Sequence record: PQ462667.1
From: Escherichia phage HMD-P3
Direction: 5' to 3' (one strand)
DNA length: 64,000 bases
Shown: positions 2,533 through 34,127 of the stretch, piece by piece
Numbering within the stretch: the stretch's first letter is position 1
How the letters are laid out: each line of letters starts with the position of its first letter
Position numbers and translations under genes: made by a program
Notes under the pieces: model-generated
What the model saw: the letters and a program-made list of their open reading frames with translations, nothing else
Told to the model about the DNA's origin: nothing
Database searches by the model: none

Positions 2533-3525
2533 ATGACAGAAGAAGTAGCTAAGAGTCCTGAGACCGTCGCTAGCGTTGCAGCAGAACTGCACCGTCACGA
2601 GGAATCAGATAAGAAAAAGTGGGAGAAGGTCAGAGCCTACGAAGAAAAACATCGTGAACACGATGAAGATGATGAAGAAGATGACGATGATGAACATTGT
2701 CATAAATATGGAAAACATAAAATGCAAGAACCAGTAAACGTATTCACTAGTGGCTTCCCTGGCCTAATGGGCGGTTACCCAGCAAACGCAGGTGCTTTTG
2801 GTGGTGAAGGTATGGGTCTATTCGGAGCTATCCTAATCGGTGCTCTATTAACAGGCGGATTCGGTGGTTTCGGTGGATTCGGTGGACGTGGTGTAGTTGG
2901 TGATGGTAGCGCAGTTGATGCAGTGCTTCAGAATCAAGATACCGCTAGTATTCTAGCAGCTATTAACACTACTCGTACAGAAGCTAATCAGGGTACTGGA
3001 GCTGTTTTAAGCGCAGTTAATAATGGTTTTAGCCAGACATCCCAAAACCAGAGCCGTGATACTCAGTCTGTACTAACTACGATCTATGGTACGGGTGCTA
3101 ATCTGTCTAATCAAATCTGCCAGGAAACTCGCAACGTTATTCAGGGTCAGTTCGATCTTTCTCGCCAGATTGATCAATCTTTCGCAGCTAACCAGATAGC
3201 TCGTGCACAAGATAAGTTTGATTCTGCACAGATCGCTTTCCAGCAGACTTTACAAACTAATAACCAGTTTGCAGCTGTTCAGGCTCAGATGTGTGCTAAC
3301 CAGAACTCTCTGGAACGTCAGATCGCTGAATGTTGCTGTGAACTTCAGACTGCGATCGCTGGTGTAACTACTGCACGTATCCAGGACGAGTTAGACGCAT
3401 GTCGCCTACGTGAAGCAATCGCTGCGGGTAGTGGTGCTAACGGTCAGGTAATTAATCAAATCGCTTTAAGTCTTGGTGCTATCACTCAGACTCTGGCTGG
3501 TCTGCAGGCTAAACTGCCGGCTTAA
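2533..3525 (+). CDS. low-complexity protein: acidic/His-rich N-terminus, glycine-zipper hydrophobic segment, Q/N/A-rich C-terminal domain (about 330 aa from the RBS-supported start)
   Basis: Strong RBS (AGGAGG) 7 nt before ATG at 2533 (the track ORF begins at 2473 without an RBS); segment GLFGAILIGALLTGGFGGFGGFGGRG; CCC and further Cys in the C-terminal part. Confidence 0.55.
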   Translation: MTEEVAKSPETVASVAAELHRHEESDKKKWEKVRAYEEKHREHDEDDEEDDDDEHCHKYGKHKMQEPVNVFTSGFPGLMGGYPANAGAFGGEGMGLFGAILIGALLTGGFGGFGGFGGRGVVGDGSAVDAVLQNQDTASILAAINTTRTEANQGTGAVLSAVNNGFSQTSQNQSRDTQSVLTTIYGTGANLSNQICQETRNVIQGQFDLSRQIDQSFAANQIARAQDKFDSAQIAFQQTLQTNNQFAAVQAQMCANQNSLERQIAECCCELQTAIAGVTTARIQDELDACRLREAIAAGSGANGQVINQIALSLGAITQTLAGLQAKLPA

Positions 3526-3546
3526 TATTAAGGGGAGGAGCCCATT

Positions 3547-3963
3547 ATGAGTAAATATGGTTTTGTAAATAACGGACTTAATCAAAGTATGGGCTCCCAG
3601 CAGCCCATTCCAGGTCTGGATAACCCCTACTTACAACAGTTGCAACAGCGTTTAGCAGAAGCGCAACAGATGCAGCAACAACTCCAGCAAAATCCTAGAA
3701 GTGTGAGTCCTATACAAATGATGCAGCAAATGAGCGGGCAGTCGCAAATGCCTCAACAAATGCAGCAACAGATGCCGCAGCAGCAAGTTCAGCAACAAAC
3801 CCAACAACCGCAGGTTTCTGCGGAAGGACAGGCAGTACTAGCCCTTTTCGAAGACTTCGCAAAGACAGAGGATGGGAAGCAGCTTGTATCACTTATGGGT
3901 AAGTTTAATAGCTTCTGCCAAAGCCAAATTGCAAAAGCTCAAAATAGCGGTGATAACTCCTAA
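3547..3963 (+). CDS. glutamine-rich low-complexity protein (138 aa)
   Basis: RBS GGGGAGG upstream; about 35% Q in the central region (QQMQQQLQQ..., PQQMQQQMPQQQVQQQTQQPQ). Confidence 0.5.
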   Translation: MSKYGFVNNGLNQSMGSQQPIPGLDNPYLQQLQQRLAEAQQMQQQLQQNPRSVSPIQMMQQMSGQSQMPQQMQQQMPQQQVQQQTQQPQVSAEGQAVLALFEDFAKTEDGKQLVSLMGKFNSFCQSQIAKAQNSGDNS

Positions 3964-28383: not shown

Positions 28384-28489
28384 CAATTACAGAAAAATTT
28401 CAGTTGCTTAATCCTATAATTCTTGATATAATATTCTCATAGTTTGAAAGAACTATTCTGTTTAATTCTTAATTAAGGAAATATAAAAT

Positions 28490-28900
28490 ATGACTACTCC
28501 AACTCAGTGGACTGATGAACTGTTCGAAAAAATGTCTTCCGAATACGTTGCTCGTATGGAGCAATTCCCAGAGGATGAACGTCCGGGTGTTAGCATGGAA
28601 ATTGTTAGCGAAATTGCCCAGGAAAATGGTGTAACTCCGAACGGTTTTCGTATGAAGCTGACTAAAGCAGGTTTGTATATCAAGAAAGCTGCTGGCTCTG
28701 CTTCTAAATCTAGCGCATCTACTGGAGAAAAAGCTTCTGGTGGTTCTCGTACTTCCAAAGCCCAGGCGCATGCAGATCTTCGTTCAGCGTTCTCTGATGC
28801 TGGCCTAGCACCAGATTTTCTGGATGATGCAATTATCGACAAACTGACCGGTAAAGCGGCTGCTCATCTGGCAGAAGCAATCCGAGCTATCACTAAGTAA
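28490..28900 (+). CDS. hypothetical protein (136 aa)
   Basis: ORF with RBS (AAGGAAA) and its own promoter-like element (cttgatataatattctcat) upstream. Confidence 0.5.
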   Translation: MTTPTQWTDELFEKMSSEYVARMEQFPEDERPGVSMEIVSEIAQENGVTPNGFRMKLTKAGLYIKKAAGSASKSSASTGEKASGGSRTSKAQAHADLRSAFSDAGLAPDFLDDAIIDKLTGKAAAHLAEAIRAITK

Positions 28901-29283: not shown

Positions 29284-29592
29284 ATGAGCGAACAGGTAAA
29301 TCAAAACTATGAAGGACACGTTGATGACCAGTCCATCATACTTTGGGAGAAGGAGGGAGAACAAGTAAGATTAACAGTATCTGAATTTCGTGGGAATCTA
29401 TACATGGGTATTCGTTACTGGCTTCTTGATATTAATGATGAATGGTTTCCAACGAAATCTGGCTTCTCTTTTCCTTACACCCTAGAAACAACATCACAGC
29501 TTTTCTATGCGTTTACACAGATTCTTAGCGAATCTGAGGTTTTACATGAAGTACAGAAACGAGCTGAAGAACTCAAAGCCAAGAATGCCTAG
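29284..29592 (+). CDS. PC4/Sub1-like ssDNA-binding protein
   Basis: VRLTVSEFRGNLYMGIRYW fits the PC4 C-terminal domain signature; a PC4-like protein is documented for T5. Confidence 0.55.
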   Translation: MSEQVNQNYEGHVDDQSIILWEKEGEQVRLTVSEFRGNLYMGIRYWLLDINDEWFPTKSGFSFPYTLETTSQLFYAFTQILSESEVLHEVQKRAEELKAKNA

Positions 29593-29604
29593 TTCTTGGC
29601 TTTT

Positions 29605-29676
29605 TCTTTATAAATGTATTTGCTTTCAACTCAGTTTTGTTATATAATATTTATATAAATTGATGAGAGGATCAAT
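29605..29676 (+). promoter_or_regulatory. T5-type early promoter
   Basis: tgtatttgctttcaactcagttttgttatataatatttatataaattgatgagagg. Confidence 0.55.
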
Positions 29677-29866
29677 TATGAACATAACACTTCCAAAAAT
29701 TCAAGCAAAGTTAAACCTAGTATCAACTGCTAGAAATAACTATCTAGATAACTTTGGTGGAATCAACGATAAAGCGTACAAAGATGCGTGGTTGAAAGAA
29801 GCGCAAGAGTTAGCCGATCTCACTACTCAGTATAGTAAAGAACTACAGGTAGAAATGAATGACTAA
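29660..29866 (+). CDS. hypothetical protein (68 aa)
   Basis: ORF immediately upstream of, and overlapping, the ligase N-fragment. Confidence 0.4.
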   Translation: MMRGSIMNITLPKIQAKLNLVSTARNNYLDNFGGINDKAYKDAWLKEAQELADLTTQYSKELQVEMND

Positions 29867-30830
29867 TGTAAAAGACTTTATTAAACGTTGTCAAGAAGCA
29901 TATTACCAGGGAATGTCTTTAATCTCTGACGAAGAATATGATCGTCTGATTAAAAGATTTCCGTTAGAAGAAGAGATCGGGCCTAAGGGTGATATTCCAC
30001 ATCTGTATCGTATGTATTCTTTACAGAAAGTTTATTATAATCGTGGAGATAAACCTCCGTTTAACCCATTAGGTCAGGTAGAAACTGATAAGTTAGATGG
30101 TTGTGCGATTTCTCTGTTATATATTAATGGCGAATTTGTTCAAGCACTAACTCGTGGTAATGGTATTCTAGGGAACGATGTCACAAGCAACGTAAGATTG
30201 CTGAACATTCCTAAAAAGATTTCCCAAAAAGTACCTACTCAAATCACTGGTGAAGTTCTAATTACAAAAGAAGTAGAAAATAAACGTAACTTTGCCTCTG
30301 GTGCTATTAACCTCAAAGATAGTGATGATTTCGTACAGCGTATCGGAGAAGGTGGTTTAATCTTCGTTGCATACGGTATCCAGTGTTCTGGTGAATCTGT
30401 AGGTATTACAGAAACGTATTTAAAAGATATGCTTTGGCTAGAGAATGAGAACTTCTTAACAGTTGTTAATGTGCGTTCCTTCTTTAAGTGGATTCCAACG
30501 GATGGTAAAGTTGTTCGTATTAATGACAACAACAAATTCTTCCGAGAAGGCTGGACTAATAAATTTCCTCGTGGAGCATTCGCTATTAAAGAGGATGAAG
30601 AAGGTGAGATTACTACTCTTACTAAAGTTGAATGGCAGGTAGGGGCTTCTGGTAAAGTAACTCCAGTTGGTTATTTCGAACCGGTAATTATTGATGATGC
30701 TACAATTGTTAAGGCGACTCTTAATAACGTTGATTATATTAACTCTCTCGATCTAGAGATCGGTTGCCAGATTCGAGTAATTCGTGCTGGTGGTGTAATC
30801 CCGTGCATAGTAGAGCGAGTATACGATTAA
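29859..30830 (+). CDS. ligA: NAD-dependent DNA ligase, N-terminal fragment (adenylation + OB domains)
   Basis: EEYDRLIKRF, adenylation lysine motif KLDGCAISLLY, TRGNGILGNDVTSNV and an OB-domain tail align to bacterial LigA. Confidence 0.85.
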   Translation: MTNVKDFIKRCQEAYYQGMSLISDEEYDRLIKRFPLEEEIGPKGDIPHLYRMYSLQKVYYNRGDKPPFNPLGQVETDKLDGCAISLLYINGEFVQALTRGNGILGNDVTSNVRLLNIPKKISQKVPTQITGEVLITKEVENKRNFASGAINLKDSDDFVQRIGEGGLIFVAYGIQCSGESVGITETYLKDMLWLENENFLTVVNVRSFFKWIPTDGKVVRINDNNKFFREGWTNKFPRGAFAIKEDEEGEITTLTKVEWQVGASGKVTPVGYFEPVIIDDATIVKATLNNVDYINSLDLEIGCQIRVIRAGGVIPCIVERVYD

Positions 30831-31029
30831 TACATAACCCTTTGCTACCCATCTACCATATCGGAATTATAAAGTGGTTATTGACATTTTCGCCGCTTAG
30901 GTATATACTATTATCATTCAGTTGAGGGATAGAAAGTTATGGCGAGGGTAAGCAAAGTTAGTTAAAATTGTAGTTGCTAAATGCTTAAATACTTGCTATA
31001 ATATTTATATAAATTGATAAGGAAGAAAT

Positions 31030-31812
31030 TTGATGAAAATCGAAATTCCAATACAATGTCCCTCTTGTGGTTCTAAGCTAGATCTTGTCAACGGACAATT
31101 ATTCTGTCGGAATAAGTCCAACTGTCCAGCGCAATCAAGTAAGTTAATTGAGAACTTCTGTACAAAAATGAAGTTAAAGGGCTTTGGCCCAAAAACTATT
31201 GAGAAGCTGGAGCTGACGAAGATTTCAGAACTATTCTACCTAACCGAAGAAGATTTGGTTAGAGCCGTGGGTAGCAAGGTTGCCGCTAAATTAATTAGCG
31301 AATTAAATACTAAAGTTCGCGGAGACATTGACTTTGGTTCAGTTCTCGGTTCTTTAGGAATCCCTCTAATTGGAGAGGTTGCAGCAAAGAAATTATCCCA
31401 AAATTGCACTAGCTTCCACGATGTGAAGGCTGACGGCAAGGCTGGAGAAAACTATAAAACCTGGCTAAATTCCCCACAAGGCAAGGATGTTATTGAATTA
31501 CCGTGGAAATTCTCAACTGGTATCAGAGGTGCAAAAGCTAATATTATCATTACAGATGAATTAGTTGCCCAGCCAAACGGAATCGCGGTATGTATTACCG
31601 GATCTTTGCAAGATTTTGCAAATCGAACGGATGCAACAAACTATTTAGAAAGTCTAGGATATACGGTTAAGAAATCCGTTACCAAAGACGTCAAATACCT
31701 AATCTGTGAGGATGAATCAAAACGTTCTTCCTCATCTTATAAGAAAGCCGAAACGAATGGGATAGAAATCCTGTCGATTAAAGAACTATTGGAGAAAAAT
31801 AATAATGTCTAA
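31030..31812 (+). CDS. ligB: NAD-dependent DNA ligase, C-terminal fragment (Zn finger, HhH, BRCT)
   Basis: CPSCGSKLDLVNGQLFCRNKSNCPAQ (LigA Cys4 zinc finger), helix-hairpin-helix segment, BRCT-like ICITGSL...; separated from the N-fragment by a 199-bp gap carrying promoters. Confidence 0.85.
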   Translation: MMKIEIPIQCPSCGSKLDLVNGQLFCRNKSNCPAQSSKLIENFCTKMKLKGFGPKTIEKLELTKISELFYLTEEDLVRAVGSKVAAKLISELNTKVRGDIDFGSVLGSLGIPLIGEVAAKKLSQNCTSFHDVKADGKAGENYKTWLNSPQGKDVIELPWKFSTGIRGAKANIIITDELVAQPNGIAVCITGSLQDFANRTDATNYLESLGYTVKKSVTKDVKYLICEDESKRSSSSYKKAETNGIEILSIKELLEKNNNV

Positions 31813-32572
31813 ACTGAACTGGAACGTAGAAGGTGTAACCGAGTCTCTGAAAGCAAAAGCCACTGCTCTGGGTGTTGCTGTAATCTCTCAAGAACAAGTA
31901 GCTGCTATCGCTGCTGAACTGGCTGCTGAAACTGGCAAAGACGTTACAGCTCGCTCTGTCGGCTCTAAACTGCGTAAAGAAGGTTTTGAAGTACAGAAAG
32001 CTAACGAAGTACAGAAATCCCCGTGGACTCCTGAGCAGGAAGCTGAACTGGTTGATTTCCTGAACGCTCATGCTGGTCAGTACACCTATGCTGAAATCGC
32101 TGCTGCTGTAGCTGGTGGTCAGTTCGGTGCTAAACAGGTACAGGGTAAGATCCTGAGTCTGGAAATGACCGCTTCTGTTAAGCCAACCGAAAAAGCTGCT
32201 GCTGTTCGTTCCTTTACTCCAGATGAAGAAACTGATTTTGTTAATCAGGTTGTTGCTGGTGCTACTATTGAAGCTATCGCTGCTCACTTCGGTCGTAATA
32301 TCAAGCAGATCCGTGGTAAAGCTCTGAGCCTGCTTCGTGAAGGTCGTATCGCTGCTATGCCGGTACAGGAAACTTCAAGTGCTAAAACTCGTGAAGATCT
32401 GTTAGAAGGTCTGGATCTGGTTAACATGACTGTTGCTGAGATCGCTGAGAAAACTGGTAAGTCTGAGCGCGGTGTTAAATCTATGCTGTCTCGTCGTGGT
32501 CTGGTTGCTAAGGACTATGATGGTGCCGCTAAGCGTGCTAAACTGGATGCAAAAGCTGCGGCTGCTGAATAA
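31805..32572 (+). CDS. protein with three tandem ~50-aa alpha-helical repeats
   Basis: Three repeats of the form (T)PE/DE..E.V.F.N...G.T..EIAA..G.....V.GK.LSL...; the third continues ...MTVAEIAEKTGKSERGVKSMLSRRGL (HTH/SAP-like); terminator downstream. Confidence 0.55.
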   Translation: MSKLNWNVEGVTESLKAKATALGVAVISQEQVAAIAAELAAETGKDVTARSVGSKLRKEGFEVQKANEVQKSPWTPEQEAELVDFLNAHAGQYTYAEIAAAVAGGQFGAKQVQGKILSLEMTASVKPTEKAAAVRSFTPDEETDFVNQVVAGATIEAIAAHFGRNIKQIRGKALSLLREGRIAAMPVQETSSAKTREDLLEGLDLVNMTVAEIAEKTGKSERGVKSMLSRRGLVAKDYDGAAKRAKLDAKAAAAE

Positions 32573-32588
32573 TCTGGTAAATTAAACC

Positions 32589-32622
32589 TAAGGGGAGGGG
32601 GCTATGCTCCTTCCCCTTTTTG
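32589..32622 (+). terminator. rho-independent terminator
   Basis: aaggggagggggctatgctccttcccctttttg: G/C-rich stem with T-run; the track ORF start at 32604 lies inside it. Confidence 0.6.
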
Positions 32623-32654: not shown

Positions 32655-34127
32655 ATGACCTTGTTTAACGTGCAAGCTGTAGTGTTGAAGATGCTTCTCG
32701 CTTCTGAACAGAAGCAAATAGCATTGGAAACATTCTCAAAACTGCATAAAGATCATTTTAATGACGCTTTCTCCTCAATTTACCAAGCCGTCCAGAATTA
32801 TTATAAAAAATATAACACAATGCCGTCCATTGACGCACTTATGCTTGAAGCTAATAGGAACGCCCGCCTTTCTCAAGCTCTAGTCGTCTTAGCTAACACT
32901 CAAATTCCAGAAGTGAGCATGGAACAGGCACTTGAAGTCCTAGAGGCTGAATATACACAGGATTTATTCCTGAAGCTTCTAGAAACAGACGTGCTTCAAG
33001 ATTTAACAATGCTGGATCAGGGAGAAATTCTCAACCGAGTTGCCTCCCTTCACTTAAAATTAGAAGAGAAAGTAACGAATACTGGAAAAGTATTCAACGC
33101 AGATAACATGCGTATTTTCCAGAGAGAAGAAGATACCAAACTGAACTTAATCGCTCTTGGTATTTGTAATGAGTTCGACGCTCAAATTGGTTTAGCTCGC
33201 ACAGAAACGTTACTGCTTGGTGGTTGGCGTGGTACTGGTAAATCCATTATCTGTTCAAACATACAGGTTCAGCAATATTTGAATGGAGATATTGCTCCAT
33301 ACTTCTCAATTGAGATGAAAGAACATGAAGTATTTAGACGTAATCTAGCCATGTTAGCAGGTGTATCAGCACTAGCAATGCGTAATAATACTCTAGAAGG
33401 TGCAGCTCTGTTGAGATTAGCCAGAACTAGAGCTAGAATGTTTAATGGTGGTGAAGAGCTTTTTGATAACTTCGTTAAACAGTACACAATGGCTAAGATG
33501 AGTGATTTCTACGATATGGAGAGTAAGCTAATAGAAGGATATGAGCTACATACTCCTATGATTATTGTTTATGACCCTGAGCTGTCTATTACAACAGTTG
33601 ACGTAGAACTAAATAAATTAGTTGCTAGATATGGAGATAAAGTTACAGTAGCTTTACTGGACTATATTAACCAAACCCGACTTCCAGATTCTAAAACCAT
33701 TGATATGTATGACTGGAAAGAACAGATGGTTGTTAGCTCGTCTTTCAAATCTATCTGCCAGAAACATAACGTGGCTGGTGTAGCTCCTTACCAGATCGAT
33801 CAAGATGGTAGAACACGTATGTCAAAGGGGATTCTTGATTCCGCGGATATGGCTGCTAATCTTAATGCTGCAAAAGCTGATAATGGTCAAGGTGCTATTA
33901 TGTTTGACTTCGTTAAGACTCGTTCTTCTGATAGCGTGAAGTTTATGCCTAAGATGAACTGGGAAACTCTGCGAATGGATAACACTACCAACCTAGCAAT
34001 GGAAGACATATCTCAAATGGAAGCTGAGTTCGTTATCCCTATTGAGAAGGATAAGCCGGCTCAACCTAAACGTGCTAAGAAAGACAAAGCTGAAAATTCA
34101 ACAGGTGAACAGGCCAGCGATATATGA
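32655..34127 (+). CDS. DnaB-like / RecA-fold replicative helicase
   Basis: Walker A LLGGWRGTGKS and Walker B-like VALLDYINQ; start set to ATG 32655 (RBS AAGGAGA; a TTG at 32661 is an alternative) rather than the track start inside the terminator. Confidence 0.6.
   Translation: MTLFNVQAVVLKMLLASEQKQIALETFSKLHKDHFNDAFSSIYQAVQNYYKKYNTMPSIDALMLEANRNARLSQALVVLANTQIPEVSMEQALEVLEAEYTQDLFLKLLETDVLQDLTMLDQGEILNRVASLHLKLEEKVTNTGKVFNADNMRIFQREEDTKLNLIALGICNEFDAQIGLARTETLLLGGWRGTGKSIICSNIQVQQYLNGDIAPYFSIEMKEHEVFRRNLAMLAGVSALAMRNNTLEGAALLRLARTRARMFNGGEELFDNFVKQYTMAKMSDFYDMESKLIEGYELHTPMIIVYDPELSITTVDVELNKLVARYGDKVTVALLDYINQTRLPDSKTIDMYDWKEQMVVSSSFKSICQKHNVAGVAPYQIDQDGRTRMSKGILDSADMAANLNAAKADNGQGAIMFDFVKTRSSDSVKFMPKMNWETLRMDNTTNLAMEDISQMEAEFVIPIEKDKPAQPKRAKKDKAENSTGEQASDI

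Follow-up and report, generated by a model that had tools for sequence, protein, structure and literature searches.

The subject of this analysis is a DNA ligase dependent on nicotinamide adenine dinucleotide (NAD+) that is encoded by two adjacent genes of Escherichia phage HMD-P3. The window, meaning the whole stretch of 64,000 nucleotides that was analysed (sequence record PQ462667.1), is placed by its sequence in Tequintavirus, with 98% identity to Shigella phage SSP1. A 2.4-kb region at the locus is 98% identical to many Tequintavirus genomes (e.g., Shigella phage SSP1 and Salmonella phage HMD-7) and is matched by 514 phage records. The locus is that of the T5-family NAD+-dependent DNA ligase, whose subunits A and B are the products of ligA and ligB. 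The features at its centre are listed here, with the source of each in parentheses.

29859-30830, plus strand: ligA (dnlj1), 323 amino acids, with domain Ia, nucleotidyltransferase (NTase) domain and OB domain (list of open reading frames, Pfam, alignment to E. coli LigA)
30831-31032, no strand: intergenic spacer of 202 bp with stop codons in all frames (sequence, frame scan)
30881-30909, plus strand: putative promoter 1, homologue of T5P36, TTGACA-17-TATACT, 11/12 (promoter scan, T5 annotation)
30974-31002, plus strand: putative promoter 2, homologue of T5P37, TTGCTA-17-TATAAT with an extended -10 TG, 10/12 (promoter scan, T5 annotation)
31020-31026, plus strand: Shine-Dalgarno sequence AAGGAAG, 6 nt 5' of the ligB ATG (direct reading of the sequence)
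31033-31812, plus strand: ligB (dnlj2), 259 amino acids, with Cys4 zinc finger, HhH and BRCT domains (list of open reading frames, Pfam, alignment)

A two-gene ligase of this kind is already known. It has been part of the GenBank annotation of T5 for about two decades, and an orthologue has entries in the PDB. In the T5 record (AY587007), the genes are annotated as dnlj1 and dnlj2 (AAX12044 and AAX12045), and the spacer between them carries T5P36, T5P37 and 'repeat b copy 5'. The products of T5 ligA (AAU05253) and ligB (AAU05254) have been named as NAD-dependent DNA ligase subunits A and B in a 2013 paper (PMC3632103), which was the only paper naming the two T5 subunits that a literature search returned. 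Searches for literature on heterodimeric or split phage ligases, for the paper behind PDB entry 9HU3 and for T5 transcription start sites returned nothing relevant. The product of the HMD-P3 ligA gene (LigA-N) is 98% identical to T5 AAX12044 and to SSP1_112, and the product of ligB (LigB) is 96-98% identical to T5 AAX12045 and SSP1_111, with 96% for the T5 protein. T5 has the same 202-bp spacer at 99.5% identity, with the same T5P36, T5P37 and 'repeat b' elements, and the same D5, helicase and primase genes downstream. It differs only in lacking a 62-amino-acid open reading frame that HMD-P3 has between promoter and ligA.

The structural evidence comes from another genus. PDB entries 9HU3 and 9I5I contain a chain A named 'DNA ligase (NAD(+))' (339 amino acids, E value 2e-104 to LigA-N) and a chain B named 'DNA ligase subunit B' (248 amino acids, E value 7e-80 to LigB). 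Chain B is 100% identical to the gene product of Providencia phages PR1 (vB_PreS_PR1) and PSTCR5. These phages have the same two-gene architecture and break point at about 54% protein identity (tblastn), with a gap of 192 bp between the genes. Their chain A matches LigA-N residues 4-323 and their chain B matches LigB residues 1-255. Because the T5 annotation and the Providencia phage entries already exist, the two-subunit ligase proposed in the initial annotation of the window is a correct rediscovery. The pair is read here as a heterodimeric LigA, in which subunit A carries out NAD+-dependent self-adenylation and catalysis and subunit B contributes the zinc finger, the HhH DNA clamp and the BRCT domain. 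The probability of this reading is put at about 0.9. The analysis directly establishes the structure of the genes, their domains, their conservation and the purifying selection on them, and a two-chain orthologue has been solved.

Open reading frames and Pfam domains agree with the earlier claim of two ligase fragments on one strand between 29859 and 31812. LigA-N matches DNA_ligase_aden (PF01653, E value 8e-24) and, over residues 252-321, DNA_ligase_OB (PF03120, E value 4e-22). Residues were compared by aligning both halves to E. coli LigA plus 60-odd full-length relatives. The KLDG sequence of motif I (K78-G81) aligns with E. coli K115-G118, which makes K78 the catalytic lysine, and residues K78, D80, G81, R99, E132, R143, D215 and K244 are kept relative to E. 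coli LigA. The nicotinamide mononucleotide (NMN)-binding residues of the E. coli Ia domain are Y22, D32, Y35 and D36. They correspond to Y15, D24, Y27 and D28 of LigA-N, and Y16 replaces H23. The 120 best database relatives of LigA-N, which reach down to 46% identity, are 310-337 amino acids long and contain only adenylation and OB domains; the exception in length is one partial record of 240 amino acids.

LigB contains the remainder of the enzyme. Its BRCT domain is matched in Pfam with an E value of 6e-8, and its HhH matches lie under Pfam's own cut-offs (HHH_2, E value 3e-5, 24.5 bits versus 27 required). The zinc cysteines C9, C12, C25 and C31 align with E. coli C408, C411, C426 and C432, and the protein as a whole aligns with residues 401-653 of the Thermus filiformis structure 1DGS. 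The single-chain bacterial enzymes, E. coli LigA (2OWO) and T. filiformis LigA (1DGS/1V9P), have the same domain order (Ia, NTase, OB, zinc finger, HhH, BRCT) and share the KxDG lysine, the NMN-binding Ia residues and the Cys4 site with the phage enzyme. E. coli LigA is one chain of 671 amino acids, whereas LigA-N and LigB together total 323 + 259 = 582 amino acids, with several deletions in the NTase and HhH domains.

The point at which the chain is interrupted has been located by alignment. The last residue of LigA-N aligns with E. coli S393 and K2 of LigB with E401; therefore, the chain is broken in the linker between the OB domain and the zinc finger. Comparison with six unsplit compact relatives puts the break in a linker whose length ranges over about 6-25 residues, and nothing is missing. 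The split had been described as falling exactly at the OB/zinc-finger boundary, and the alignments to E. coli LigA and to the unsplit relatives agree on this: the chain ends meet across the linker and no structured residues are lost. The same OB/zinc-finger break point was found in every Demerecviridae genus examined. These comparisons covered 41 related loci from Tequintavirus, Epseptimavirus-like phages, Sugarlandvirus, Hongcheonvirus, Providencia and Proteus phages, Vipunavirus and other Vibrio phages.

Some phage genes contain group I introns or inteins. A single chain might thus be restored by a self-splicing intron, by trans-splicing of a split intein, by frameshifting or by read-through, and a break that lies between domains, with two adjacent open reading frames on the same strand, is compatible with such a route. 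The gap itself argues otherwise. The 202-bp spacer has stop codons in three frames (seven in the ligA reading frame and about five in each of the other frames), and ligB lies in a different reading frame from ligA. Among relatives, the gap varies from 189 to 1135 bp and may hold independent genes, with the promoters staying beside ligB; splicing or recoding is incompatible with independent genes between the halves. LigA-N extends no further than the OB domain, and LigB has its first zinc cysteine as early as residue 9. The junction aligns residue for residue with the unsplit linker, which leaves no room for intein halves, and no intein or Hint domain was found by Pfam in LigA-N or LigB. An Rfam scan of 29500-32200, with E values up to 10, gave no intron and three chance-level matches only. 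The gap has no Rfam match to a group I or group II ribozyme core, and no conserved RNA structure was found across relatives. In addition, the PDB orthologue consists of two separate chains that match the gene boundaries. Restoration of a single chain is thus very improbable. The initial annotation had argued for a true two-subunit ligase rather than a frameshift or an intron. The two-gene arrangement at all 41 loci, purifying selection, the separate PDB chains and a gap free of Rfam introns, together with proteins free of intein signatures, bear this out.

One window taken alone cannot rule out an indel error, and the split could be an artefact of sequencing or assembly, or the pseudogene remains of a gene disabled by a recent mutation. 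Comparison with relatives makes this the least probable of the alternatives. Of the 29 closest loci, 28 share the same 202-bp spacer and the remaining one carries an inserted endonuclease gene. Each of 436 phage records spans 80% or more of the spacer, and a stand-alone, full-length LigB homologue was found by tblastn in 984 phage records. The catalytic and zinc-binding residues are intact. The ratio of nonsynonymous to synonymous divergence (dN/dS), calculated against six relatives, is 0.04-0.19 for both halves, and by this measure both are under purifying selection. An artefact or a pseudogene is already refuted by the comparative sequence data.

A further possibility is that the two products are largely independent, with subunit A acting as a minimal ligase or adenylyltransferase, subunit B acting as a BRCT/HhH protein that binds DNA or serves as a scaffold for D5 and the replication machinery, and the split serving the dosage of B. 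Several observations are in keeping with this. Tandem promoters of its own precede ligB, which is coupled to D5 and not to ligA; in Vibrio phages as much as 1.1 kb, with other genes in it, separates ligA from ligB; and ligA and ligB differ in diversity and in their mosaic pattern (e.g., in the relative at locus L032). On the other hand, ligB is preceded by a ligA homologue on its own strand in all 41 loci fetched, unsplit homologues that occupy the equivalent place in the genome are collinear with the pair, and both chains were deposited together in 9HU3 and 9I5I. The behaviour of E. coli LigA fragments also speaks against independent products. In domain-deletion work, fragments consisting of the Ia, NTase and OB domains self-adenylate, and they bind and seal nicks poorly without the HhH domain. 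Independent functions are considered unlikely, though less so than a restored single chain.

If the heterodimeric reading is correct, subunit A would provide the NAD+/NMN site and the adenylated lysine K78, and subunit B would provide the DNA-binding half that closes the clamp around the nick. The two chains would assemble non-covalently into an enzyme equivalent to single-chain LigA, and the assembled ligase would seal Okazaki fragments and nicks during phage replication. Certain points weigh against this picture. The stable complex of the two chains is inferred from their deposition together in 9HU3 and 9I5I; subunit stoichiometry, mode of assembly and promoter activity are likewise inferred. 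No transcript 5' ends, protein-interaction data or ligation assay were found for this phage or for T5, and the promoters in the spacer are labelled 'putative' even in the T5 record. Residues R208, K290, R333 and R277 are reported as important in E. coli LigA. In LigA-N, the first three are changed (to N151, R220 and A263, respectively) and the position of R277 is deleted. Of four HhH glycines that were compared with E. coli LigA, just two align. In view of these differences, the enzyme is a derived compact LigA, and its detailed DNA contacts may differ from those of E. coli LigA. T5-family ligases have an arginine at the motif IV lysine (E. coli K290) and A-S (263-264) at R333-T334 of the OB domain. 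These derived features of the family (residues 151, 220 and 263-264, and fewer HhH glycines) may alter DNA contacts.

The regulatory layout extends on both sides of the two genes and includes the following additional features.

29284-29592: PC4-like gene, followed by the terminator-like hairpin at 29575-29603
29575-29603, plus strand: terminator-like hairpin that would end the upstream unit (12-pair stem and T-run; T5 has a rho-independent terminator at the homologous place)
29620-29648, plus strand: putative early promoter homologous to T5P35, TTGCTT-17-TATAAT, for the 62-amino-acid open reading frame and ligA (nearly identical to T5 'putative early promoter T5P35')
29643-29667, plus strand: 'repeat b' copy, comprising the -10 hexamer and initial transcribed region (T5 'repeat b copy 4')
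29678-29866, plus strand: 62-amino-acid open reading frame (orf62; phrog_8267, SSP1_113) between the T5P35-like promoter and ligA (list of open reading frames; phrog_8267, E value 1e-38)
30997-31021, plus strand: 'repeat b' copy on the ligB side (T5 'repeat b copy 5')
31805-32572, plus strand: gene for the D5 DNA-binding protein, whose start overlaps the ligB stop, ATGTCTAA (list of open reading frames; relatives annotate D5)
32590-32618, plus strand: terminator-like hairpin that would close the ligB-D5 unit (13 pairs, 8 of them G-C, then a T-run)

The sigma70-like and T5-type elements reported earlier in the gap stand, on the grounds of consensus and conservation; their activity as promoters is putative. 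Conservation was followed by aligning the 200 bp that precede ligB in ten phages, which represent three subfamilies. The promoter pair is kept upstream of ligB in these phages and most hexamer positions are invariant or nearly so. It is found directly upstream of ligB even where the gap holds other genes. As judged from this alignment, there is good phylogenetic support for a function of the promoters. The T5 PH207 promoter was considered as the element in the gap and rejected, as its sequence maps elsewhere in T5; it is a related member of the promoter family only.

The two genes differ in how they are started. The ligB start can be placed at ATG 31033 (259 amino acids, spacer of 202 bp) or at TTG 31030 (260 amino acids, spacer of 199 bp). 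Relatives annotate the ATG, and chain B in the PDB likewise starts with MKI, as does ligB read from ATG 31033. A purine-rich block at the position of the ligB Shine-Dalgarno sequence is also present in relatives in the upstream alignment. The start of ligA, an ATG, and the stop of the upstream 62-amino-acid open reading frame overlap by 8 nt; the ligA promoter, at 29620-29648, is further upstream. The statement in the initial annotation that each fragment has its own ribosome-binding site and start applies to ligB, with its AAGGAAG, and fails, as regards the ribosome-binding site, for ligA, which starts inside the upstream open reading frame and has no free-standing ribosome-binding site. Among relatives, no part of the locus is more prone to indels than 29633-29833, where the gap fraction is 0.25-0.45.

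Read from left to right, the proposed layout would be terminator, T5P35-like promoter, orf62, ligA, tandem T5P36 and T5P37 promoters, ligB, D5 and terminator. The overlap of the ligB stop and the D5 start implies that ligB and D5 would be co-transcribed, and D5 is probably translationally coupled to ligB. Because of this overlap and the terminator-like hairpin after D5, the promoters in the gap probably serve a ligB-D5 unit. A terminator scan found no terminator-like site between ligA and ligB, and read-through from upstream would therefore add to transcription of ligB and D5. Transcripts of ligB would thus come from both the ligA promoter, by read-through, and starts at the two promoters in the gap.

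The ligA and ligB promoters are also related to each other. The 25-mers of 'repeat b' at 29643-29667 and 30997-31021 differ by one mismatch (96% identity), and the first 19 nt have exact matches at only these two sites in the window. With this shared repeat, the promoter on the ligA side is a near-duplicate of the proximal ligB promoter, which would help to match the expression of ligA to that of ligB. The T5-type block of -10 hexamer and initial transcribed region, TATAATATTTATATAAATT, has 15 matches in the window with up to three mismatches, compared with 0.24 expected by chance. Matches are spread window-wide (e.g., at 148, 519, 2284, 6125, 20825, 27419, 39490 and 39591). Those located before about 9 kb are on the minus strand, and most of those after about 20 kb are on the plus strand, a strand pattern that fits divergent early transcription units.

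The putative T5P36 transcript upstream of ligB (30916-31040, 125 nt) has been folded. In this phage, it forms a long imperfect hairpin (-26.1 kcal/mol, z = -3.77) with the ligB ribosome-binding site outside the paired region, and the fold is not conserved across genera. A structured leader RNA as a family-level feature was rejected, as RNAalifold gave no consensus pairs for eight family members; within the genus it is possible. A leader mini-ORF encoding MARVSKVS (30939-30965, after GAGGGA) was also rejected, as the Klebsiella phage homologue has no ATG.

The spacer varies less than the genes on either side of it. In 29 close relatives, the spacer has a nucleotide diversity of 0.011, and the interval 30879-31058 one of 0.004, compared with 0.068 in ligA and 0.034 in ligB, and third-codon-position diversity is 0.155 in ligA and 0.078 in ligB. 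Spacer divergence is 0-0.05 versus a synonymous divergence of 0.13-0.96 in flanking genes. When 8.8 kb were compared across 27 sequences in 100-bp intervals, the spacer was among the least variable (0.004-0.005 versus a median of 0.053). The idea that this conservation is unique to the spacer was rejected, as diversity is just as low at the ligB/D5 junction and in a few segments of the helicase gene. Islands of very low diversity in these 27 relatives (0.0015-0.008 versus the same median) lie at 28433-28532, 31733-31832, 32733-32832 and 33183-33282, and the lowest is the one at the ligB/D5 overlap (31733-31832). At locus L032, ligA has a nucleotide identity of 75.5%, and the first 480 nt of ligB have 90%. 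The contrasts in diversity and the L032 locus suggest mosaic recombination with the conserved patches as junctions.

The gap itself has been filled in different ways in different relatives. It measures 199 bp in Sugarlandvirus, 189 bp in Hongcheonvirus and 283-1135 bp in some others. The order A, B, D5, helicase, primase is found in annotated Sugarlandvirus, Hongcheonvirus and Vipunavirus phages and in two further groups of Vibrio phages. In Salmonella phage SP3 (locus L034), the gap holds a gene for a 218-amino-acid GIY-YIG homing-endonuclease-like protein (3184-3840 of that locus) directly after ligA, and differences from the window sequence are clustered in the last 65 or so codons of SP3 ligA, where the substitutions resemble a co-conversion tract. 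The gap of a Proteus phage (locus L040) holds a gene for a 218-amino-acid NADAR-domain protein (3153-3809 of that locus; PF08719, E value 2e-31). NADAR domains have been linked to NAD/ADP-ribose metabolism and the reversal of DNA ADP-ribosylation, and the gene may serve in counter-defence. A DprA-like recombination-mediator gene (phrog_768; locus L004, 1365-2344) and a small open reading frame lie inside the ligase gap of Vibrio phage pVp-1. A DprA-like gene of the same family is found immediately upstream of ligA in Pectobacterium phage DU_PP_V (locus L003, 783-1346); the gene thus moves around the ligase locus. Further small open reading frames are present in the gaps of other relatives.

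Essential enzymes encoded in two pieces are known from other phages. In Aeromonas phage Aeh1, nrdA is reportedly split by the homing endonuclease gene mobE, and some T4-like phages are said to have a two-cistron DNA polymerase (gp43A and gp43B). The T4-like 'genes in pieces' resemble the T5-family ligase in that an essential enzyme is made from two adjacent cistrons and reassembles non-covalently. In the T4-like case the gap may hold a free-standing homing endonuclease gene, as does the GIY-YIG-containing gap of SP3. Unlike the T4-like cases, the usual gap of the T5 family holds promoters and not an endonuclease. A homing endonuclease as the cause of the ligase split was rejected: the GIY-YIG gene is present in the gap in three records only, corresponding to two distinct phages, and looks secondary.

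Unsplit forms of the same ligase have been found in uncultured phages. An exhaustive HMMER search of representatives at 50% identity defined a compact-ligase clade with members of split size (about 310-330 amino acids) and continuous members (555-586 amino acids) at 36-46% identity. The unsplit compact LigA proteins (P0152, P0162, P0172 and others) are collinear over both halves and lie at the same genomic position, and each is encoded by one continuous open reading frame without an intragenic spacer or promoters. Their best matches in cultured phages are the split Demerecviridae genes, each matched in two pieces. Metagenomic contigs that encode three of the continuous members were located (L043-L047), and each has a T5-type gene order: small upstream genes, ligase, D5 homologue, DnaB-type helicase, primase and family-A DNA polymerase. 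The D5 homologues, which lie directly 3' of the fused ligases, have 37-43% identity (E values 1e-49 to 1e-56), and in L043 the small upstream genes include one for a PC4-domain protein, as in the window. L043 also encodes, at 59-2429 near the unsplit ligase, NAMPT/NAPRTase-like and ribose-phosphate pyrophosphokinase-like proteins, which look like an NAD+ salvage pair. A neighbour-joining tree of 129 N-terminal regions is star-like, and inside the compact clade fused forms are intermingled with split ones. Use of the tree to polarise fused versus split forms was rejected, as it is too poorly resolved for the number or direction of events.

How the gene came to be split can be approached from the features of the spacer. 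D5 is an abundant DNA-binding protein. A tentative explanation, judged possible but less likely than its opposite, is that a cassette of strong tandem early promoters was inserted in the permissive linker of an ancestral single-chain compact ligase and was selected because it increased transcription of ligB and D5. If so, the cutting of the ligase in two would be a by-product of promoter acquisition, and the unsplit ligases at this position in uncultured T5-like phages would represent the ancestral state, from which the event could be reconstructed. In a weaker variant, the invariant spacer may also serve as a recombination junction or regulatory site.

The two-gene ligase of HMD-P3 and its relatives is a clean natural case in which a multidomain enzyme withstands a break of its chain at a flexible linker. 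Related phages have the fused or the split form at the same locus, and the two forms offer a direct test of why the gene was split. Was it through acquisition of promoters for D5, through dosage control of the DNA-binding half, or as the neutral remnant of a mobile-element insertion? These are the candidate reasons between which the fused and split loci of this phage family can be used to decide.

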